Source: Holophagaceae bacterium
GTDB lineage: Bacteria > Acidobacteriota > Holophagae > Holophagales > Holophagaceae
Assembly: GCA_035254125.1 (NCBI GenBank)
Contig: DATFAX010000082.1
Coordinates: 1-32,000, forward strand
Length of the DNA: 32,000 bases
Direction: 5' to 3'
A program made the position numbers and the translations under genes. The notes under the pieces were generated by a model. It was given only the letters and a program-made list of their open reading frames with translations. It ran no database searches and was not told where the DNA came from. This document shows positions 1,404 to 30,743 of the stretch, piece after piece (the stretch's first letter is position 1; every line of letters begins with the position of its first letter).

Positions 1404-2552
1404 ATGAACGTCGTCCTCCGCTCCGCCCTCGGTCTCCTGCTGGCCCTCCCCGGGCTCGCCCAGACCCCCGTGAAGATCGGGATCGTGAATTCCCAGACGG
1501 GGCCGCTTGCCCCCATCGGGGAGTCCATCAACAACGGCTACACCCTGGCGCTGGAGGACCTCGCCAAGCGGGGCATCAAGCTGGAGCTCGTGAAGGAGGA
1601 CGACACGGGCAAGCCTCAGATCGCCCTCTCGGGCATGGAGAAGCTCATCACCCGGGACAACGTGGTGGGCGTCGTGGGGGCCTACAGCTCCGCCTGCTCC
1701 GCGGCCATCGCCAAGAAGGCCGAGCAGTACAAGGTGCCGCTCATCGTGCCCGTGGCCTCCAAGGAGGAGATCACCAAGCCCGGCCTCAAGTACGTGTTCC
1801 GGGTGAGTGCCACCACCGAGGACTATGCGGCCGTGCTGATCAACATGGTGCTCACCCTGGGCAAGCCCAGGACCATGGCCATCCTGAACGAGAACACCGA
1901 CTTCGGCACCAGCGGCGCCAAGTCCGCCAAGCTCATCGCGAGCCAGAAGGGCATCCAGGTGGTGGCCGAAGAGGCCTACCAGGCCGGCAGCCCCGACTAC
2001 CGCTCCACGCTCGCCAAGATCAAGGGCACGAACCCCGACCTGGTGTTCATGGTGTCCTACGTGGCCGACGGCATCCTGCTCATGCGGCAGGCCCGGGAGC
2101 TGGGGCTTAGCCCCAAGGCCTTCCTGGGCGCCGGTGCCGGGTTCTCCTTCATGGAGTTCGCCAAGGAGAAGCAGATCAGCAACCTCGTCTTCTCCAGCAC
2201 CCAGTGGACACCGGAAGTCCCCTGGCCCGGGGCCAGGGACTTCGCCAAGCGCTACAAGGACCGCTTCAAGAAGGAGGAAGTGCCCTACCACGCCGCCAAC
2301 GCCTACGCGACGCTGATGGTGATGGGCGAGGCCGTGGCCAAGGGCGGCGGCAGCCGGGAATCCCTGAAGGCGATCCTGGATGCGACGGAGTTCGACGGCA
2401 TCCTCGGCAAGATCAAGTTCACGGACTACGACGGCTACACCAACCAGAACCACCATCCGATGCTGGTGGAGCAGATCCAGAACGGGAAGCACGAGACCGT
2501 GTTCCCGCCCGCCCTCGCCCCCAAGAAGCCCATCTATCCCCACAAGTGGTAG
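1404..2552 (+). CDS. ABC transporter substrate-binding protein, branched-chain amino acid (LivJ/LivK-like, type I periplasmic binding fold)
   Basis: I chose the ATG at 1404, which has GAGG 7 nt upstream and gives a signal peptide MNVVLRSALGLLLALPGLAQ. The rest resembles Leu/Ile/Val-binding proteins. It is followed by the LivHMGF genes. Confidence 0.85.
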   Translation: MNVVLRSALGLLLALPGLAQTPVKIGIVNSQTGPLAPIGESINNGYTLALEDLAKRGIKLELVKEDDTGKPQIALSGMEKLITRDNVVGVVGAYSSACSAAIAKKAEQYKVPLIVPVASKEEITKPGLKYVFRVSATTEDYAAVLINMVLTLGKPRTMAILNENTDFGTSGAKSAKLIASQKGIQVVAEEAYQAGSPDYRSTLAKIKGTNPDLVFMVSYVADGILLMRQARELGLSPKAFLGAGAGFSFMEFAKEKQISNLVFSSTQWTPEVPWPGARDFAKRYKDRFKKEEVPYHAANAYATLMVMGEAVAKGGGSRESLKAILDATEFDGILGKIKFTDYDGYTNQNHHPMLVEQIQNGKHETVFPPALAPKKPIYPHKW

Positions 2553-2565
2553 CGGAAGTCTCCCT

Positions 2566-3432
2566 GTGGACTTCCTTCTCCAGAGCCTCTTAAGCGGGAT
2601 CCTCGTGGGGGGGGTCTATGCCCTCATCGGCATCGGTCTCTCCCTCATCTTCGGTGTGATGCGGGTGATCAACTTCGCCCACGGCGACCTCATGGTGGTG
2701 GGCATGTACCTCACCTGGGGCATCTTCACCCTCTTCCAGATCGATCCCTACGTGGGGCTGTTCATCGTCTTCCCCGTGATGTTCCTGTTCGGGGGGCTGC
2801 TGCAGAAGGTATTCATCAACCGCGTGCTGAACGCGCTGCCCCAGAACCAGATCCTGCTCACCATCGGCCTGGGGCTCATCATCAGCAACGTGTTGATGAT
2901 GGCCTTCACGAGCGACTACCGGATCCTCACCACCACCTACAGCTCCAGCAGCTTCAAGCTGGGCAACATCTCCGTGTCCCAGCCCCTGCTGCGCTCCTTC
3001 CTGGTGACGCTGGGAGTGACGGGGGCCCTGGGCGCCTTCCTCAAGTTCACGAACACGGGCCAGGCCATCCGGGCCACGGCCCAGGATCGGGATGCGGCGC
3101 AGCTTATGGGCATCAACGTGAAGCGCATGTCCATCATCGCGTTCGGCCTGGGCACCGCGCTGGCGGGCACCGCCGGGGCCCTCGTGGCCCCCACCTACTA
3201 CATCTTTCCCCAGGCGGGCGGCAGCTTCACCTTGAAGGCCTTCGTCATCACCGTGCTGGGCGGCATGGGCAGCATCCCCGGCGCGGCCCTGGGCGGCGTG
3301 ATCATCGGCGTGGCCGAGAGCCTCAGCGGCGCCTACCTCAGCAGCGGCTGGAAGGAGGTCGTGGTCTACAGCCTCTTCCTCGTGGTGCTCCTCGTGCGGC
3401 CCGCAGGCCTCTTCGGAAAGTCGAGGGCCTGA
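2566..3432 (+). CDS. livH: branched-chain amino acid ABC transporter permease (LivH type)
   Basis: An in-frame GTG at 2566 with GGAAG upstream gives the N-terminus VDFLLQSLLSGILVGGVYALIGIGLSLIFGVMRVINFAHGD, typical of LivH. The protein is multi-TM. Confidence 0.85.
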   Translation: MDFLLQSLLSGILVGGVYALIGIGLSLIFGVMRVINFAHGDLMVVGMYLTWGIFTLFQIDPYVGLFIVFPVMFLFGGLLQKVFINRVLNALPQNQILLTIGLGLIISNVLMMAFTSDYRILTTTYSSSSFKLGNISVSQPLLRSFLVTLGVTGALGAFLKFTNTGQAIRATAQDRDAAQLMGINVKRMSIIAFGLGTALAGTAGALVAPTYYIFPQAGGSFTLKAFVITVLGGMGSIPGAALGGVIIGVAESLSGAYLSSGWKEVVVYSLFLVVLLVRPAGLFGKSRA

Positions 3433-8084: not shown

Positions 8085-8175
8085 GGAGAGTTGTCCGAGT
8101 GGTTTAAGGAGCACGCCTGGAAAGTGTGTATAGGTCAAAAGCCTATCGGGGGTTCGAATCCCCCACTCTCCGCCA
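8085..8175 (+). tRNA. tRNA-Ser (anticodon GGA), CCA encoded
   Basis: Hand fold. Acceptor GGAGAGT/ACTCTCC. Anticodon stem CACGC/GTGTG with loop CTGGAAA. A long class-II variable arm is present. T arm GGGGG-TTCGAAT-CCCCC. Discriminator G followed by CCA. Confidence 0.9.
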
Positions 8176-8178
8176 GTC

Positions 8179-8206
8179 AAAACGCCCGCCGCAAGGCGGG
8201 CGTTTT
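8179..8206 (+). terminator. intrinsic terminator hairpin after tRNA-Ser(GGA)
   Basis: AAAACGCCCGCC-GCAA-GGCGGGCGTTTT: a perfect GC-rich stem, a GNRA loop and a T4 tail, flanked by A4 so potentially bidirectional. Confidence 0.7.
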
Positions 8207-8215
8207 CGACGTCAG

Positions 8216-8384
8216 GGCGGAGGGTGGGGGATGCGAATGCGGAGCGGCGCCCAGGTAGCCGGAGGTGAGGTCGCGCGAGCGGCCGAACCGGTTCGTCGTG
8301 AGACGAACCGGCGTGGGCAGCCGCCAGCCGGCTGGAAGGGTCGCCCGTAGGGTGGCCCTGGAGGGAATCCCCCACTCTCCGCCA
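8216..8384 (+). ncRNA. candidate structured RNA, tRNA-Ser-linked element copy 1 (unclassified)
   Basis: 169 nt. It has a 17-bp terminal helix (8216-8232 / 8367-8383), internal helices at 8244-8252/8315-8324, and hairpins at 8269-8284 (GCGA loop), 8288-8311 (GUGA loop) and 8338-8358. Differences from the copy at 17105-17275 are compensatory. See findings. Confidence 0.55.
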
Positions 8385-8387
8385 GTC

Positions 8388-8415
8388 AAAACGCCCGCCG
8401 CAAGGCGGGCGTTTT
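8388..8415 (+). terminator. intrinsic terminator hairpin (duplicate copy) after the structured element
   Basis: Identical to 8179-8206. Confidence 0.6.
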
Positions 8416-8475
8416 CGACGTCAGGGCGGAGGGTGGGGGATTCGAACCCCTTGGGCTGACCCAGGCCCGGTCATC

Positions 8476-10204: not shown

Positions 10205-12295
10205 ATGGCCGACATCCAGAGCTTTGCCGTACGGGGCATGACGTGCGCGTCCTGTGTCCGGCGGGTGGAGAAGGCGTTGGCCGCGGTGCCCGGGGTCGAG
10301 GCCGTGAAGGTGGACCTGGCCGCCGAGCGCGCCACGGTCACTTTCGATGGCGTCACACCCCCCACCCTGGCCGAGGCCCTGAAGGCCAAGGGCTATGAGC
10401 TGGTGCTGGCCCCCTCCGCTTCGGAGGAGGCCGCCGCAGCCCGCGCCGCCCGCTGGCGCGTGGGCCTGGCCTGGGCTTTCGCCCTGCCGCTGCTCGGGCC
10501 CATGGTGGGTCTCCCCCTCCACCTGGATCCCTGGCTCCAGGGGGCCCTGGCGGCCGGCGCCGCCTTCGGCTGCGGCGCGGGTTTCCTCCTCCGCGCCGCG
10601 AAGCTGGCCGTGAAGGGCGAGACGAGCATGGACACCCTCGTGGCCCTGGGCACGCTGGCCGCCTTCGGTTCCGGCATCGCGGAGTCCATGGCCGGCGCCC
10701 ATCACACGTCCTTCGAGATCGCCGCGAGCTTGCCGGCCTTCCTGCTCACGGGCAAGTGGCTGGAGGCCCGGGCCAAGCACCGCGCCACCGAGGGGCTGGG
10801 CGCCCTGCTGGAACTCGCTCCCGCCACAGCCCTGCGGCTCACGGGCGGGCAGGAGACGGACGTCCCCGTGGCCGACCTCCGTCCCGGCGACCTCGTCCGG
10901 GTCCGGCCCGGGGGCAAGATCCCCGTGGATGGCCGTGTGCTCGCCGGCCGGGCCGAGGTGGAGGAGGCGCTGCTCACGGGCGAGCCCCTGCCCGTGCCCA
11001 AGACCGCCGGGGACGATGTCCTCGCGGGCGCCCTCGTCCATGGCGGAAGTTTGGACATCGAAGTGCGCGCTGCGGGCCAGGGCACCTGGCTGGCCCAGCT
11101 GGCCGCCCAGGTGGCCGAGGCCAAGGGCAGCCACGCCCCGGCCCAGGCCCTGGCCGACCGCATCTCCGAGGTCTTCGTGCCCGCCATGCTGGTCGTCGCG
11201 GCGCTCACTTTGGCGGGCTGGTGGCTCCACACGGGCCATCTTTCGGAGGCCTGGCGCCCCGCCGTCACCGTGCTCGTCATCGCCTGCCCCTGCGCCCTGG
11301 GCCTCGCCACCCCCGTGGCGCTGGCCACGGCCCTGGGCACCGCAGCGCGGCAGGGCCTCCTGGTGCGCGACGCCGCGGCCCTGGAGAAGCTGGCCGTGGC
11401 CACGGACCTCGTGCTGGACAAGACGGGCACCCTCACCCTGGGCCACCCGGAATTGAAGGCCGTGCAGGCCCTGGAGTCCGCTTCCGAATCCGACCTCCGC
11501 CGCTGGGCCTCGGCCCTGGAGCGGGACTCCGAACACCCCCTGGCGCGGGCCCTGCGCGGGGCCTGGGATGGCGCTCCCGCCGCCGTGTCGGACTTCGCCG
11601 CCCACCCGGGCGGCGGGGTCAGCGGCACCGTGGAGGGGCGCCACCTCCGCCTGGGCCATGCGGCCTTCCTCGGGGTGACCTTTCCCGAGATCCCGGCGGA
11701 CAGCATCGCCGTGGGCCTGGCGGAAGGTGCATCGCTGCTGGGGATCTTCCTCCTGGCAGATGCCCTGCGCCCCGAAACGCCTGCCGTGCTGGCTGCGCTC
11801 CAGGCGGATGGCTTGAACCTGCACCTCCTCAGCGGCGACCGCCCCGAGGCCGTGGCCCGCTTCGCGAGGACCCTGCCCCTGGATTCCGCCCAGGGGGGGG
11901 CGAAGCCTGCGGACAAAGCCGCCCGCATTCAGGCGCTCCAAGCGGAGCACCGGGTCGTCGCCTTCGCCGGGGACGGCGTGAACGACGCCGCCGCCCTGGC
12001 CACGGCTGATGCCGGCCTCAGCCTGCCCGGCCTGGAGGCCGCCGCCGCCAGCGCGCCCCTGAACCTCCGGCGGGAGGGCTTGAGCCCCCTGCTGGAGGCC
12101 CGGCGCCTGGCCGTGAAGCTGCACCACGTCATCCGCCAGAACCTCCTCTGGGCCTTCGGCTACAACGTGGTCCTCGTGCCGCTGGCCGCCTTCGGCCTCC
12201 TGGAGCGCCTCGGCGGCCCCATGCTCGCCGGTGCCGCCATGGGGCTCAGCTCGCTGACCGTGGTGCTCAACGCGCTGAGGTTGCGGAAGGTCTGA
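10205..12295 (+). CDS. copA: copper-translocating P1B-type ATPase
   Basis: N-terminal HMA domain GMTCASC, CPC in the TM helix, DKTGTLT phosphorylation site, SEHPLA and [10 protein letters not shown]. Confidence 0.9.
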
Positions 12296-12308
12296 GGTTT
12301 TCTAGAAC

Positions 12309-12398
12309 GCGAAGAGCGCGAAGAAAATCGCCAGGAGCGCGAAGAAATAGCAGAAGAAGGGCATTGGCGCTCTTCGCGTTTTTCTTCGCGCTCTTCGC
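12309..12398. repeat. hairpin element B: inverted arms of tandem CGCGAAGA-type units
   Basis: 12309-12327 (gcgaagagcgcgaagaaaa) is the perfect reverse complement of 12380-12398. An inner 8-bp stem pairs 12338-12345 with 12371-12378. The element lies between the convergent copA and decarboxylase stops. Confidence 0.75.
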
Positions 12399-12404
12399 CT
12401 TCCA

Positions 12405-17104: not shown

Positions 17105-17275
17105 TGGCGGAGAGAGAGGGATTCCCTCCAGGGCCACCCCTTCGGGGCGTCCCTTCCGGCCGGCTGGCCGCTGCCCACGGCGGTTCGTCCGAAGACGAAC
17201 CGGCTCGGCCGCTCGCGCGGCCTCACCTCCGCCTACCTGGGCGCGGCTCCGCATTCGAATCCCTCTCTCTCCGCC
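17105..17275 (-). ncRNA. candidate structured RNA, tRNA-Ser-linked element copy 2 (unclassified)
   Basis: 171 nt on the same strand as tRNA-Ser(CGA). It is close to copy 1, with differences confined to compensatory or wobble-compatible positions. The terminal helix GGCGGAGAGAGAGGGAT/ATCCCTCTCTCTCCGCC is perfect. Confidence 0.55.
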
Positions 17276-17280
17276 TATGA

Positions 17281-17306
17281 GAACGCCCACCTTGCGGCGG
17301 GCGTTC
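17281..17306 (-). other. hairpin between tRNA-Ser(CGA) and element copy 2 (homologous to the 8182-8203 terminator stem)
   Basis: Minus-strand sequence is GAACGCCCGCC-GCAA-GGTGGGCGTTC, with the same stem and loop as at the other tRNA-Ser locus but no U tract. Confidence 0.5.
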
Positions 17307-17307
17307 C

Positions 17308-17397
<90 letters not shown>

Positions 17398-18150: not shown

Positions 18151-19233
18151 ATGAAAGCGCACCTGATCCTGAAGGACGGCACGATCTTCCGGGGACGGGC
18201 GCCATTGGGCTTCGGAGGCGGCGGCGAGGCGGTGTTCACCACGGCCATGGCGGGCTACCAGGAGATCCTCACGGATCCCAGCTTCGCCGGCCAGATGGTC
18301 ACCATGACCTTCCCCGAGCAGGGCATCTACGGCATCCACGCGGACCTCAACGAGGCCGCCCGCCCCTGGGCCACGGCCCTCCTCTGCCGCCGCCTCAACG
18401 GGCAGCCCGACCACACCCTGAGCGAGGGGGACCTGGGCGGCTGGCTCAAGCGGCATCGCATCCCCGTGCTCACGGAGCTGGATACCCGCGCCCTCACCCA
18501 GCACCTCCGCGACCAGGGGTCCCAGCCCGGCCTCATCTGGACCGAAGGGGACGGCAGCCTGGAGGCGGGCGTCGCCAAGGCCAAGGCCCTGCCGGACATG
18601 TCCGGCCAGGCCCTCTGCAGCGAGGTGAGTTGCAAGGACCGCTACGAGATCAAGCGCGAGGCCGCCGCCTTCCGCGTGTCCGTGCTGGACGGCGGCATCA
18701 AGCAGAGCATCCTCGACCAGCTCTCGGCCGCGGGCCTGGATCTGGAAGTCTTCCCCTGGGACACGCCCGCCACGGAGCTGCTGGCGAGCCGCTTCCACGG
18801 CGTCTTCCTCAGCAACGGCCCCGGCGACCCCGGCGCCCTGCCGGGCATGCAGGCCGAAGTGGGCAAGCTCATCGGCCAGCGCCCCATCTTCGGCATCTGC
18901 CTGGGCCACCAGCTGCTGGGTCACGCCTTCGGCGGCACCACCTTCAAGCTGAAGTTCGGCCACCGCGGCGCCAACCAGCCCGTGCAGGACCTGGAGACGG
19001 GCCGCATCGAGATCACCGCCCAGAACCACGGCTTCGCCGTGGATGAGAAGAGCCTGCCGCCCGAGATCATGGTCACGCACCGCCACCTCAGCGATGACAC
19101 GGTGGAGGGCCTGCGGCACACAACCCTGCCCATCTTCTCCCTGCAGCACCACCCGGAGGCCAGCCCCGGCCCCCACGACGCCCGTTCGGCCTTCGGCAAG
19201 TTCGTGAAGCTGCTTGCGGAAAGCAAGAAGTGA
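18151..19233 (+). CDS. carA: carbamoyl-phosphate synthase small (glutaminase) subunit
   Basis: The 360-aa ORF has the GATase class I triad block GICLGHQLL and HHPEASPGP. It lies directly upstream of carB. Confidence 0.95.
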   Translation: MKAHLILKDGTIFRGRAPLGFGGGGEAVFTTAMAGYQEILTDPSFAGQMVTMTFPEQGIYGIHADLNEAARPWATALLCRRLNGQPDHTLSEGDLGGWLKRHRIPVLTELDTRALTQHLRDQGSQPGLIWTEGDGSLEAGVAKAKALPDMSGQALCSEVSCKDRYEIKREAAAFRVSVLDGGIKQSILDQLSAAGLDLEVFPWDTPATELLASRFHGVFLSNGPGDPGALPGMQAEVGKLIGQRPIFGICLGHQLLGHAFGGTTFKLKFGHRGANQPVQDLETGRIEITAQNHGFAVDEKSLPPEIMVTHRHLSDDTVEGLRHTTLPIFSLQHHPEASPGPHDARSAFGKFVKLLAESKK

Positions 19234-19646
19234 TGGACCACCAAGACACCAAGACACCAAGAAAGGACTTGGAGCCTAGGCTGGAAGAGCTGGCGGCGAC
19301 GATTGTCGATTCGGCGATCAAGGTGCATCGGTCGCTGGGGCCTGGGCTCTTGGAGAATGTCTACGAGGTGTGCTTGATCCGGGAGCTGACGACCCGGGGG
19401 CTGAAGGTGCAGCGGCAGGTGTCGCTCCCCGTTTTCTACGAAGGCCTGGAGCTGGATGCGGGCCTTCGACTGGATCTCCTGGTCGAGGGAGATGTGGTGA
19501 TTGAACTGAAGGCGGTGGAGGCCATCCTCCCCGTGCATCACGCCCAGTTGCTCACCTATTTGAAGCTGGCGGACAAACGCCTCGGATTCCTGATCAATTT
19601 CAACTCCCCAGTCCTCAAGGACGGCATTCACAGGAGGATCCTGTGA
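19233..19646 (+). CDS. GxxExxY family protein (PD-(D/E)XK nuclease-like fold, PDDEXK_3-type)
   Basis: It carries GLLENVY (GxxExxY), then DLLVEGDVVIELK (D...E.K nuclease-like motif) and HHAQLLTYLKL. The first ~10 codons are just the translated repeat arm, so the true start may be later. Confidence 0.75.
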   Translation: MDHQDTKTPRKDLEPRLEELAATIVDSAIKVHRSLGPGLLENVYEVCLIRELTTRGLKVQRQVSLPVFYEGLELDAGLRLDLLVEGDVVIELKAVEAILPVHHAQLLTYLKLADKRLGFLINFNSPVLKDGIHRRIL

Positions 19647-19680
19647 CCTGCTTTTCTTGGTGTCTTGGTGTCTTGGTGGT
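19238..19680 (+). mobile_element. 443-bp cassette bounded by perfect 27-bp inverted repeats of tandem CACCAAGA octamers, carrying a GxxExxY ORF
   Basis: 19238-19264 (accaccaagacaccaagacaccaagaa) is the exact reverse complement of 19654-19680. The cassette fills the carA-carB spacer. Confidence 0.7.
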
Positions 19681-25086: not shown

Positions 25087-25109
25087 GGGGCAGGGCGGTT
25101 GCGGGGTCG

Positions 25110-25259
25110 GGATCGCGAATAGCGCGAATAAGGGCGCGAATGGCGCGAATGAATAAGTAGGGTCGTCCTACCCATTCAAGGTGGGGTTCGGATTCCACCT
25201 TGGCCTCTTTCGACGTCTCATTCGCGCTATTCGCGCCTTTATTCGCGTCATTCGCGATC
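25110..25259. repeat. hairpin element C: GGATCGCGAAT-type arms (4 tandem GCGCGAAT units each side) around a ~63-nt core
   Basis: Left arm 25110-25154, right arm 25218-25259. 38 of 42 positions are complementary, and 3 of the 4 mismatches are G.T on the plus strand. The arm family is the same as element D. Confidence 0.8.
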
Positions 25260-28733: not shown

Positions 28734-29876
28734 GTGGCTGTGAATCGCGTGGTCCTCGCCTTCGCCCTGGCCGCTGTGGGCGTGCTGCGGGCCGATGACT
28801 TCCTGGACTGGGCCCGGGGCCTGGAGAAGCGGGGAGTGAAGGTGTCCGCCGCCTGCTGGGACCTGGAGACGGGCAAGGCCGTGGACCGACATCAGGAGCA
28901 CCTGATGCTGGTGCCCGCCAGCACCACGAAGGTGGTGAGCACCTACGCCCTGCTCAAGACCTGGAAGCCGGACTTCCAGGTGGAGACCGAGGTCTGGGGC
29001 CAACTGGCGGGGGGGGAGATCCAGGGGGACCTGGTGTTCAAGGGGGGCGGCGACCCCTACCTCACCACCGAGCGCCTCTACACCCTGGCCCGGGAACTGC
29101 GCGCCCTGGGCGTCAAGCGGGTGCTGGGGGAGATCAAGCTGGACCAGGGGGCCTTCGACGGGCAGCGCTGGGGCAACGGCTGGGAAAACACGAGCGCCGA
29201 CACCACGCCCGCCATCTCCGCCCTGGCCGTGAACTTCGGTCGCAATGCCGCCGGCCGCATCGTCACAGACACGGACCGCGCCGCCATCGAGGAGATCACC
29301 ACGGTGCTGGCCGATGCGGGCATCCCCGTGGCCGGCAAGGCGGGACTCAAGGATGCGCCCCTGAAGCTGCTCGCCTTCCGCAGCCCGCCCCTGCGCATGC
29401 TGGTGGGCGACATCAACAAATTCAGCAACAACTTCATGGTGGAGACGCTCACCAAGAAGTTCGGCGAGGGCTCCTGGCCCCGCGGCGTGGCCCGCATCCA
29501 CGACTTCTACGCCAAGGTCTTCGGCCTGGGGCCCGGCCAGCTGTTCCTCACGGACGGCAGCGGCCTCAGCAAGGACAACCGCCTCAGCGCCCAGACCCTG
29601 GGCATCGTGCTCCGGGGGGCCTGGTTCGATTTCGAAGTGGGCCCCGAGTTCGTCGCCAGCCTCAAGATCATCGGGGGCGAACCGTTCCGCCTCAAACACA
29701 AGGATGAGAACCTCACCCGCCGCGTGCGCGTGAAGAGCGGCTACCTCGACCTCGTGCGCACGCTCTGCGGCTACATCCAGATGCCCGACGGCCGCTGGCG
29801 CGTCTTCGCCATCCTCCTCAACGGGCAGACCACCGAGGATGATATTTGGGATCAGGTCAGTCGCTGGGCGAACTGA
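28734..29876 (+). CDS. dacB: D-alanyl-D-alanine carboxypeptidase/endopeptidase (PBP4, peptidase S13 family)
   Basis: The three active-site motifs are present: SxxK (PASTTK), SxN (FSNNF) and KSG (VKSGYL). There is an N-terminal signal sequence and a GTG start. Confidence 0.8.
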   Translation: MAVNRVVLAFALAAVGVLRADDFLDWARGLEKRGVKVSAACWDLETGKAVDRHQEHLMLVPASTTKVVSTYALLKTWKPDFQVETEVWGQLAGGEIQGDLVFKGGGDPYLTTERLYTLARELRALGVKRVLGEIKLDQGAFDGQRWGNGWENTSADTTPAISALAVNFGRNAAGRIVTDTDRAAIEEITTVLADAGIPVAGKAGLKDAPLKLLAFRSPPLRMLVGDINKFSNNFMVETLTKKFGEGSWPRGVARIHDFYAKVFGLGPGQLFLTDGSGLSKDNRLSAQTLGIVLRGAWFDFEVGPEFVASLKIIGGEPFRLKHKDENLTRRVRVKSGYLDLVRTLCGYIQMPDGRWRVFAILLNGQTTEDDIWDQVSRWAN

Positions 29877-30088
29877 GGGCCTACTCGAAGCCAGCATCCA
29901 CGGCTCAGGGTCTGGAGTATCCCGCCTCGCGGGATACCCAGAGGATGACATCTGGGACCAAGTCAGCCGCTGGGCGAACTGAGGACCTACTCGAAGCCAG
30001 CACCCACGGCTCAGGGTCTGGAGTATCCCGCCTCGCGGGATACCCAGAGGATGACATTTGGGACCAGGTCAGTCGCTGGGCCAACTGA
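29835..30088 (+). repeat. 106-bp tandem repeat (2.4 units), each unit starting with a copy of the last 13 codons plus stop of dacB
   Basis: Units start at 29835, 29941 and 30047. Each coding copy reads EDDIWDQVSRWAN*. The 64-nt spacers contain a 14-bp bulged hairpin (TCTGGAGTATCCCGC-CTC-GCGGGATACCCAGA). Confidence 0.85.
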
Positions 30089-30110
30089 GGGGCGTGTCGG
30101 GCCGGGGTCT

Positions 30111-30297
30111 GGATCGCGAATGGCGCGAATGAAAGCGCGAATGACGCGAATCAGCTGATCTGGGGATTGCCTTCCTGCTTTTCGGGCCCGATGAATGGGT
30201 CGAAGAGGTCCGCCCCTCGGGCAGCCACGCCGGGACCGAGGCCAGATAAATCCTCCATTTGCGTTATTCGCGCTTTTATTCGCGCCATTCGCGATCC
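30111..30297. repeat. hairpin element D: GGATCGCGAAT-type arms (4 tandem units each side) around a ~105-nt core
   Basis: Left arm 30111-30151, right arm 30257-30297. 38 of 41 positions are complementary, and all 3 mismatches are G.T on the plus strand. Confidence 0.8.
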
Positions 30298-30368
30298 CCC
30301 CAACGCACTCCGGGGAATCCAACCCTTCGATTCTCAATCCCCACCGGCCAGCCCCCGATGAGGTTCCC

Positions 30369-30743
30369 ATGGCACGCGTGACCATCCTGGATGACAGCCG
30401 GCTCGCCCGCACCTTCGCGGCGGGGGCGCTGCGCGCCAAGGGGATCCAGGTCACCGAGCTGGAGCCCGAGAGCCTGCCCCAGGTGATGGAGGCCCTGCGG
30501 TTGGAGCTGCCGGACCTGCTCCTGGTGGACCTGCTCATGCCCACCTGCCCGGGACTGGCGGTGGTCCGCAAGATCCGCCAGGAAGAGGATCTGAAGCACC
30601 TCAAGATCGTGGTGCTCAGCGCCCATCGGGATGAGGCCCAGGTGGAGCAGTTGGAGAAGCTGGGGGTGCAGGGGTTCCTGCCCAAACCCGTGGACGCCAA
30701 CGCCGTGGGCTACCTGGTGAAGATGGTGCTGGACCAGGAATAG
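30369..30743 (+). CDS. single-domain response regulator (CheY-like receiver)
   Basis: The ATG at 30369 has GAGG upstream. It has acidic pocket DD (ILDDS), phospho-acceptor LLLVDLLMP and a conserved Lys in LPKP. Confidence 0.85.
   Translation: MARVTILDDSRLARTFAAGALRAKGIQVTELEPESLPQVMEALRLELPDLLLVDLLMPTCPGLAVVRKIRQEEDLKHLKIVVLSAHRDEAQVEQLEKLGVQGFLPKPVDANAVGYLVKMVLDQE

Follow-up and report, generated by a model that had tools for sequence, protein, structure and literature searches.

An ORF-less hairpin with tandem-unit arms downstream of dacB in a Holophagaceae genome, and its relation to GxxExxY cassettes

Intervening sequences (IVS) of ribosomal RNA (rRNA) have been known since 1990, and to our knowledge their nature and their spread are still unexplained. 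In 23S rRNA they are known from Coxiella, Leptospira, Salmonella and other bacteria, and GxxExxY genes are also annotated in them. Transcribed copies of the REP (repetitive extragenic palindromic)/REPIN, Correia and ERIC elements can change the processing or the stability of mRNA. In eukaryotes, foldback (FB) transposons possess long terminal inverted repeats that are composed of short tandem repeats, and their middle segment is variable or absent. The subject of this study is element D, a hairpin of 187 bases in the spacer between dacB and a response regulator (RR) gene. It lies in a stretch of 32,000 nucleotides, hereafter the window, from Holophagaceae bacterium (GenBank assembly GCA_035254125.1, contig DATFAX010000082.1, positions 1 to 32,000, forward strand). 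We consider it reasonably probable that D is a non-autonomous copy, without an open reading frame (ORF), of a mobile 'foldback' family of hairpins with tandem-unit arms, whose full-length members carry GxxExxY genes. This reading is built on the family membership of D, its insertion polymorphism, the conservation of its arms, the absence of an ORF and the stability of its fold.

The closest described system is the IVS of the Coxiella 23S rRNA. Its terminal inverted repeats form a stem of 28 bp, and three to four tandem GACAGAT heptamers, varying in number between strains, are found in its 5' part (PMC4990558). The small ORF of this IVS encodes the S23p four-helix bundle and is reported to be under reductive evolution, and the stem is cut internally by RNase III (PMC4990558). 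The IVS are considered to be selfish elements, and how they spread is not known (PMC4990558). The GxxExxY family belongs to the PD-(D/E)XK superfamily and its function is listed as unknown (PMC3424549). The context of the REP elements is given by a review (PMC3733652). Full-text literature searches did not reveal any description of tandem-unit hairpins of this kind outside rRNA.

Structure, insertion and conservation of element D

The inverted-repeat search placed D in the spacer with two arms of 41 nt each, which are 93% complementary and 105 nt apart. Its parts are as follows.

30089-30110, + strand: G-rich leader GGGGCGTGTCGGGCCGGGGTCT, beginning at the base after the TGA stop codon
30111-30151, + strand: left arm, GGAT and four CGCGAAT units with the linkers GG, GAAAG and GA
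30152-30256, + strand: core of 105 nt, non-coding and drifting at a neutral rate
30257-30297, + strand: right arm, an imperfect reverse complement of the left arm
30298-30329, + strand: C-rich trailer CCCCAACGCACTCCGGGGAATCCAACCCTTC

Direct comparison of the arms reproduced the arm coordinates of a preliminary description of this DNA, its 38 pairs among 41 positions and its three exceptions of G opposite T. The exceptions are 30131/30277, 30143/30265 and 30148/30260. In each of them the left arm has G and the right arm has T. In a + strand RNA these positions would be G.U, and in the opposite transcript C/A. The composition of each arm from four units was also found as described, but the linkers of 2-3 nt were not. 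When CGCGAAT is taken as a unit of 7 nt, the linkers are 2, 5 and 2 nt and the periods are 9, 12 and 9; the exact GCGCGAAT makes up only two of the four units per arm. The arms terminate in GGATC. In the window, whose G+C content is 69%, GCGCGAAT occurs 9 times against 1.05 expected, and all of the occurrences are in D and in a sister element at 25111-25259. The fold of D is very stable. The free energy of the + strand RNA is -119.6 kcal/mol, compared with -82.3 +/- 4.8 for shuffles (z = -7.8), and that of the - strand RNA is -112.0 kcal/mol (z = -6.0).

The first arm begins 22 nt past the start of the leader, which directly follows the TGA. Leaders of the same kind (TGA followed by GGGGC[AG]..GGGTC.G) precede the sister element, named C (25087-25110), and the orthologue of D in L133, one of the L-numbered loci fetched for comparison. 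A related G-rich leader precedes the copy between the RR gene and EamA in L137. At the same position, relatives without the element read TGATC.... The start of the trailer, CAAGGC[AC]CTCC, was found again beside the D-like element of the L137 RR-EamA spacer, and the trailer is missing from the empty sites of L135 and L137. It probably belongs to the inserted unit.

The dacB genes of the syntenic Holophagaceae contigs share 94, 88, 88, 87, 84 and 79% identity with that of the window. The spacers between dacB and the receiver gene are different in length and content.

Window: 492 nt, D and dacB-end repeats
L133 (dacB 94%): 280 nt, the orthologue of D, alike in leader, arms, core and trailer
L135/L136: 66 nt, empty
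L137: 54 nt, empty
L134/L138/L140/L141: various lengths, other hairpins

In the last group, the hairpins comprise a mini-palindrome, an element armed with GGAACGCGAAG/GCGCTAA, arms of CGCGGAG and CGCAGAA that are nested, and a simple G+C hairpin. The nested arms with these two unit types are those of L140 (4904-5300), where the contig ends inside the structure. Judged from synteny, D is an insertion, which is present in the closest relative and not in three more distant syntenic relatives. In L137, the dacB-RR spacer is empty while a D-like element with GGATCGCGAAT arms, a similar G-rich leader and a CAAGGCCCTCC trailer occupies the RR-EamA spacer (11580-11760). The turnover extends over a syntenic block of 20 kb, in which eight intergenic sites are variably occupied by different arm families. 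Besides dacB-RR, the sites are carA/carB, CoA-binding/fabD, after carB, after DinB, RR/EamA, EamA/ABC and ABC/permease. The same arms may also hold different contents: ACCACCAAGACACCAAG arms enclose a gene in the window and a few bases in L134.

As a general caution, assemblies of metagenomes can make inverted joins, so a chance palindrome or an assembly artefact was considered for D. Such an origin is hardly conceivable. It is refuted by the L133 orthologue, which belongs to a different metagenome-assembled genome (MAG), an independent assembly, and has a diverged core; the z value of -7.8 and the many family copies elsewhere also speak against it.

The orthologue allowed the rates of change to be compared within D. 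The arms of the window and L133 are identical at 76 of 82 positions (93%), with 38 of 41 in the left arm. All three differences in the right arm are T in the window for C in L133, and among the six differences of the two arms is a change of both partners at arm position 34, from G-C to A-T. The identity at third codon positions is 77-83% for dacB, RR and EamA (78% for dacB), and the core is 77%, the leader 67% and the trailer 83% identical, the last with a local match of 88% over 33 nt. The divergence of the arms is lower than the third-codon divergence of 22% (P = 3e-4) and lower than that of the core (Fisher P = 0.004). The arms changed about three times more slowly than the neighbouring non-coding DNA and the third codon positions. 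Since the identity of the arms is above, and that of the core at, the third-codon level, constraint acts on the arms but not on the core. It concerns the sequence as well as the pairing, as the CGCGAAT arm recurs across classes and phyla.

The family of tandem-unit hairpins and its GxxExxY genes

The CGCGAAT-arm family is defined here by inverted arms of ~40 nt that start with (G)GATCGCGAAT and contain 3-4 CGCGAAT/CGAAT units, joined by purine linkers of 2, 4-5 and 2 nt. Its position is intergenic at the 3' end of a gene, 0-35 nt past the stop codon. The arms of D are of this form and correspond unit for unit with those of C, L133, L019, L039 and L065, and D is placed in the same way. A GATCGCGAATNNCGCGAAT scan of one genome per species returned mostly chance matches in coding DNA. 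True paired four-unit arms were obtained from a Solibacteraceae MAG (at least four contigs), Holophagaceae MAGs and Gemmatimonas. The four-unit-arm loci of the Solibacteraceae and Holophagaceae MAGs are L001, L012, L019, L029, L039, L042, L044 and L065. AT-richer versions of the arm were seen on contigs of Verrucomicrobiota, Kiritimatiellales, Chloroflexaceae and Paceibacterota, and a stricter arm pattern gave 16 metagenome loci. The search of a plasmid collection gave no match, and the screening of viral contigs for further GxxExxY cassettes gave one locus only. The core length of the family lies between about 15 nt and over 400 nt, the latter with a GxxExxY gene of 420 nt.

In L012, from a Holophagaceae MAG, and in L132, the arm type of D (GATCGCGAAT-RR-CGCGAAT...) encloses a GxxExxY gene. 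Therefore, D, itself ORF-less, belongs to a family in which other members with the same arms bear an ORF. The preliminary description had likened D to the cassette between carA and carB and had left it to be seen whether any copies carry ORFs; the likeness is borne out and these two loci do carry them. Further evidence comes from the annotation of proteins. Many of the database GxxExxY proteins (P0121-P0219, homologues of window 19230-19646) start with MNHQDTKTPR, MNHQGTKTPRE or HEDTKARR, all of which are translated hairpin arms (ACCACCAAGACACCAAG, or CACGAAG units). MNHQDTKTPR, the translation of the ACCACCAAG arm, stands as the annotated N-terminus of many such proteins in Planctomycetota, Verrucomicrobiota, Kiritimatiellia, Pseudomonadota and other groups. 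Because these N-termini are the translated arm, translation probably starts elsewhere than annotated, and the conservation of the arm reaches across phyla. The GxxExxY proteins of L012 and L132 are only 37% identical to each other, which is no closer than their 39-43% identity to the one with ACACCAAG arms. An association of arm type with cargo clade was considered and does not hold in the few cases available.

Besides D, the window has four hairpins with tandem-unit arms.

25087-25259, + strand: sister element C, with the same leader, four-unit arms at 25111-25152 and 25218-25259 and an unrelated core of 65 nt, then TTCTTTTCC
19237-19680, + strand: ORF-bearing cassette between carA and carB, with a GxxExxY gene (TIGR04256, E = 4e-43) enclosed by perfect 28-nt arms of ACACCAAG units
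12305-12402: hairpin of GCGCGAAG units, filling the gap between two convergent stop codons
197-306: hairpin of TTCATCTCCG units

The arms of C are of the same GATCGCGAAT type as those of D. The core of C (25153-25217) contains two nested stem-loops, one of which (AAGGTGGGGTTCGGATTCCACCTT) is loosely similar to the T-arm of a tRNA. With TTCTTTTCC behind it, C is terminator-like on the + strand, unlike D. In C, L065, L135 (6326-6556) and L138 (2762-3017), the right arm, when its reverse complement is read, has its purine linkers in the reversed order of the left arm (e.g. AG..GG vs GG..AG). Each element thereby acquires one A.C mismatch and one G.T mismatch, an order that may be due to chance or may be a trace of how the arms arise. 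At the carA/carB site, the same cassette is present in a lower-GC relative (L154-L163, 1436-1902). The site is empty in L134 (849-856), with the genes overlapping, and in L135 (820-906) an ORF-less hairpin of the CGCGAAT type is found. The unit family of the 197-306 hairpin (GAGATGAAC) follows carB in L135 and L138.

The occupancy of the spacers was counted in six syntenic stretches. Hairpins are present in 12 of 69 co-directional and 7 of 20 convergent spacers and in none of the 17 divergent ones (Fisher P = 0.04, a value for which orthologous sites are not independent). The copies are at the 3' ends of genes, just past the stop codons, and in this sense they respect the transcription units, as the preliminary description had expected.

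The core of D is without a credible ORF, as had been described: in the scan of every reading frame there was no NCBIfam match even at E = 10, TIGR04256 included. In the Rfam search of the window, nothing was obtained for D at the gathering score and only two tRNAs were found; at E up to 1, the only match was to a plant miRNA hairpin, whose 27.7 bits fall below the gathering score of 137. The cores of D and C, the leader and the trailer were compared by blastn with 140 fetched loci. The only match was the orthologue of D, for the D core as for the other queries, and the cores of D and C are unrelated.

These results bear on the origin of the core. The preliminary description had offered a decayed cassette as one possibility, in which D would have arisen from a GxxExxY cassette by internal deletion. 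Such an origin is compatible with a non-autonomous copy of a mobile family, since it concerns the core only. The enclosure of intact GxxExxY genes by the same arms in L012 and L132 would suit it, and so would the reported reductive evolution of the ORF in the Coxiella IVS (PMC4990558). In addition, the core of the L133 orthologue keeps an ORF of 25 codons (MIWGVLPYFLADEWIDQVRPSGSRV), which is disrupted in the window by CTG in place of its ATG and by a frameshift from a 2-nt indel. On the other hand, the core of D, that of the L133 orthologue and those of related elements did not align locally with the GxxExxY cargo of L012 and L132 better than shuffles. There is no detectable similarity of the core to GxxExxY genes, the scan of the frames was empty, and the cores of C and D are also unrelated to each other. 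The origin by decay is rather unlikely, although it keeps some weight. A likeness seen by eye between GATGAATGGGTCGAAGAGGTCC and the ...KMEWERLV end of the L012 gene was rejected as unsupported, because the alignments were equal to shuffles and the scans with hidden Markov models were empty. The GAACGCGAAT/G-armed elements of L135 and L138 have larger cores, in which a hairpin is nested and a motif of loose similarity, GATG..TGGGTCGA, occurs that may be due to chance.

Mismatches, transcription and possible roles of D

The preliminary description had understood the restriction of the mismatches of D to G.U as a sign of selection on an RNA hairpin rather than on a DNA palindrome. This argument was not sustained. 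A result of three out of three has P = 0.125, because any transition in one arm yields either G.T or A.C on a given strand, and the family is without an excess of G.U. On the + strand, C has three G.T mismatches and one A.C. The sole arm mismatch in the L133 orthologue of D is A.C on the sense strand. Among the family hairpins between co-directional genes, 21 sense G.U were counted against 18 sense A.C (P = 0.37), and in the subset of the Holophagaceae clade 17 against 14. A strand-consistent bias relative to transcription is therefore missing, and by the refuting condition that the preliminary description had set itself the argument fails. In this census, the stems were defined without G.U pairs, and 1x1 and 2x2 mismatches were classified in co-directional spacers only. 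The gene calls outside the Holophagaceae clade were crude (by third-position G+C content or ORF length), which makes it a weak test. Its power is low also because a single mismatch in a stem of 41 bp costs little in either reading. Asymmetry associated with transcription and replication leads to strand-biased deamination of cytosine. Such deamination would account equally well for the T-for-C pattern in the right arm of the window if the changes arose in the window, their direction being unpolarised by an outgroup. Three G.U pairs in one hairpin are thus no evidence of RNA-level selection. An RNA role for D is possible on other grounds, by analogy with the stems of IVS.

In one such role, D would be an RNA module selected by the host, either a processing site or an insulator, with the stem kept by selection on the sense-strand RNA. 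The slow change of the arms, about threefold below neutral, and the one compensatory base-pair change are consistent with it. The + strand RNA is more stable than the - strand RNA by 7-8 kcal/mol in both D and C, and six of the seven mismatches of D and C taken together are G.U on the sense strand. The copies of the family keep to transcribed 3' regions and are absent from divergent promoter regions, and the similarly built stems of IVS are substrates of RNase III. However, the balance of G.U and A.C in the family (21:18 overall, 17:14 in Holophagaceae) and the A.C mismatch of the orthologue do not fit such selection, and the T-for-C changes of the right arm agree with mutation bias. The arm sequence itself is conserved across phyla, whereas RNase III needs no such sequence, and three close relatives have no hairpin of any kind at the site. 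Overall, a host-selected RNA module is improbable.

The balance of the mismatches is what would be expected if neither transcript matters, and it can be asked if D acts at the level of DNA. Each arm would then consist of four protein-binding sites about one helical turn apart (9/12/9 bp), and D would be a recombination site, a landing pad or a REP/BIME (bacterial interspersed mosaic element)-like site for nucleoid or topology. The conservation of the unit sequence across phyla with unrelated cores, and the occupation of the same intergenic sites by different cargo and arm families in close relatives, are in line with this. Some cassettes with direct repeats of 26-64 nt from the end of the upstream gene also have the look of recombinational integration. 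D, however, has no flanking direct repeat, and no recombinase or binding protein was identified. The unit periods vary with the arm family (8, 9-12 and 10 nt), so that helical phasing is not general. The restriction to the 3' ends of genes is equally explained by selection against the disruption of promoters. Overall, a role at the DNA level is quite improbable.

We return to D as a non-autonomous copy of a mobile hairpin family. The leader, the first 41-nt arm, the core, the second 41-nt arm and the trailer would have been inserted together directly past the dacB stop codon, in a recent ancestor common to the lineage of the window and its closest sequenced relative. We regard the arms as the cis-acting sites for the mobilising or binding machinery of the family, and the core as passenger DNA that drifts neutrally. 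As the arm sequence is conserved across phyla, a sequence-specific partner is indicated. The GxxExxY protein encoded by the cassettes is the obvious candidate, but we hold it to be somewhat unlikely that it is the mobilising agent. The two genes that flank D are as follows.

28734-29876, + strand: dacB (PBP4), upstream gene (TIGR00666, E = 5e-45)
30369-30743, + strand: single-domain response regulator (receiver), downstream gene

The profile matches confirmed the preliminary placement of both genes on the + strand, and the start codon of the receiver gene is consistent with the genes of 124 aa called in relatives. Neither a sigma-70-like promoter nor an intrinsic-terminator consensus was found in 29700-30500, where the consensuses may not fit Acidobacteriota. 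The absence of both between dacB and the receiver gene suggests that D is probably transcribed within a dacB-receiver co-transcript. In such a transcript, the arms of D would form a duplex of 41 bp. By analogy with IVS, RNase III could plausibly cut the stem of D and separate the dacB and receiver messages, a step that we consider somewhat short of likely.

Several results weigh against the mobile-family reading. No transposase, target-site duplication or second copy of the D core was found, and therefore the mobility of D itself is argued from its relatives. The target-site duplication was looked for by comparing occupied with empty sites and by a direct-repeat scan of the flanks, a test in which the palindromic terminal GATC...GATC of D is indistinguishable from the inverted repeat. 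Identical GxxExxY proteins (P0172, P0131 and P0193; sampled in 10 places each) are always in a single context, with no recent transposition. The low identity of the CGCGAAT-armed GxxExxY proteins (37%) does not favour the cargo as an arm-specific agent. Finally, the arms of a fixed selfish copy are expected to decay, yet those of D are conserved, which may point to a role at the level of the host or to conversion by other copies.

Gene-end copies and comparison with known systems

Upstream of D, the end of dacB is repeated together with a small hairpin.

29835-30088, + strand: the final 42 nt of dacB, stop codon included, in three tandem copies with a period of 106 nt
29911-29943, with a second copy at 30017-30049: small hairpin h (TCTGG-A-GTATCCCGC-CTC-GCGGGATAC-C-CCAGA)

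After copy 1, and again after copy 2, come part of the ancestral spacer and the small hairpin; after copy 3 comes D. The small hairpin was seen only at the dacB sites of the window and L138. One extra copy of the dacB-end module is present in L138 (11114-11250) and none in L133. Nine sites vary among the copies, 6 in the window and 3 in L138, and every one of them is a third codon position (P = 5e-5). Therefore, each copy was once a working gene end or was copied from one. Similar copies were found at other cassettes. Downstream of a Kiritimatiellia GxxExxY cassette (L144-L153, about 2450-3020), 48 nt of the metG end are copied together with the stop codon, and the L132 cassette (2180-2860) is flanked by a direct repeat of 64 nt. 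In L167 (1360-2040), a 26-nt copy of the end of a GH106 gene is found with an arm start beside a GxxExxY cassette. D itself had no gene-end direct repeat in the scan of its flanks. The gene-end copies suggest either integration by recombination, in which a substitute gene end was supplied, or unequal exchange that occurred repeatedly.

Two side observations were made. In L166 (1960-3426), one variant of the GH106-GxxExxY-sulfatase locus, the hairpin that lies downstream of the cassette has received an IS110 family gene (PF02371), and the right arm of that hairpin is replaced. In the regions 8085-8450 and 17254-17397 of the window, both tRNA-Ser genes are followed by a terminator-like hairpin and then by an inverted copy (18-26 nt) of their own 3' end. 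The module of tRNA end, hairpin and inverted copy is duplicated directly at 8155-8232 and 8366-8443, with about 130 nt between.

A wider and speculative reading, which we regard as rather doubtful, is that tandem-unit hairpins make up one pan-bacterial class of IVS-like cassettes, with or without GxxExxY or four-helix-bundle genes. The members would be post-stop colonisers that are read through their unit arrays, their integration would duplicate 26-64 nt of the target 3' end, and the IVS of rRNA would be a special case. D and the stack of dacB ends would then represent repeated integrations at one hot spot. The integration itself would be that of a Campbell-type circle with a substitute gene end, or would follow a very long staggered cut. 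If the IVS architecture is common in ordinary operons, the question of IVS becomes tractable by comparative genomics and simple biochemistry. Tandem-unit hairpins put RNA duplexes of 40 bp into operons such as carA-carB and dacB-RR. Besides, they mislead gene callers, as in the MNHQDTKTPR starts, and mark hot spots of recombination. D alone is of moderate interest, and the family behind it is of more.

Among the known systems, the 23S IVS shares with D a long stem of terminal inverted repeats with short tandem repeats, 41 bp in D and 28 bp in Coxiella. A stem of at least 20 bp with short tandem repeats, the trait taken here for the comparison with the described IVS (PMC4990558), is present in D. 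In contrast to IVS, D lies between protein-coding genes and not in helix 25 or 45 of 23S rRNA, and there is no rRNA in the window. D also has no ORF and its units are CGCGAAT. The excision by RNase III was demonstrated for IVS, whereas for D it is reasoned by likeness. Against the GxxExxY cassettes (TIGR04256 / PF13366 PDDEXK_3), the arm type of D is that of L012 and L132 and the placement past the stop codon is the same, but D has no gene and its core has no trace of one. From an intrinsic (Rho-independent) terminator, D differs in that its right arm is followed by CCCCCCAACG and not by a run of T.

Like REPIN/REP, Correia and ERIC elements, D is a short multi-copy extragenic hairpin past a stop codon in co-directional or convergent spacers. 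Non-autonomous copies are far more numerous than protein-coding ones, as with REPIN/REP and transposable elements of the miniature inverted-repeat kind (MITEs). However, the arms of D are without the GTAG or CGTC tag of REP/REPIN, and no RAYT-like gene is present in the ORF map of the window. Unlike those of REPIN and MITEs, the arms are tandem units instead of a single palindrome, the arm sequence is common to several phyla, and the gene partner is GxxExxY, not a known transposase. The terminal inverted repeats and the multiple copies of a MITE are there, and TA or another target-site duplication was not found. As regards a parent element with a transposase, L012 and L132 have the same ends but encode GxxExxY. 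The FB transposons are similar to the family of D in having arms of short tandem repeats and a variable middle segment. They are eukaryotic, with far longer arms and a transposase-dependent mobility with target-site duplications, and no descent is implied. D thus falls outside the IVS, the GxxExxY cassette, the classical MITE, REP/REPIN, the terminator and every Rfam family. In its working, D is closest to an IVS, and in its distribution to a REPIN or a MITE.

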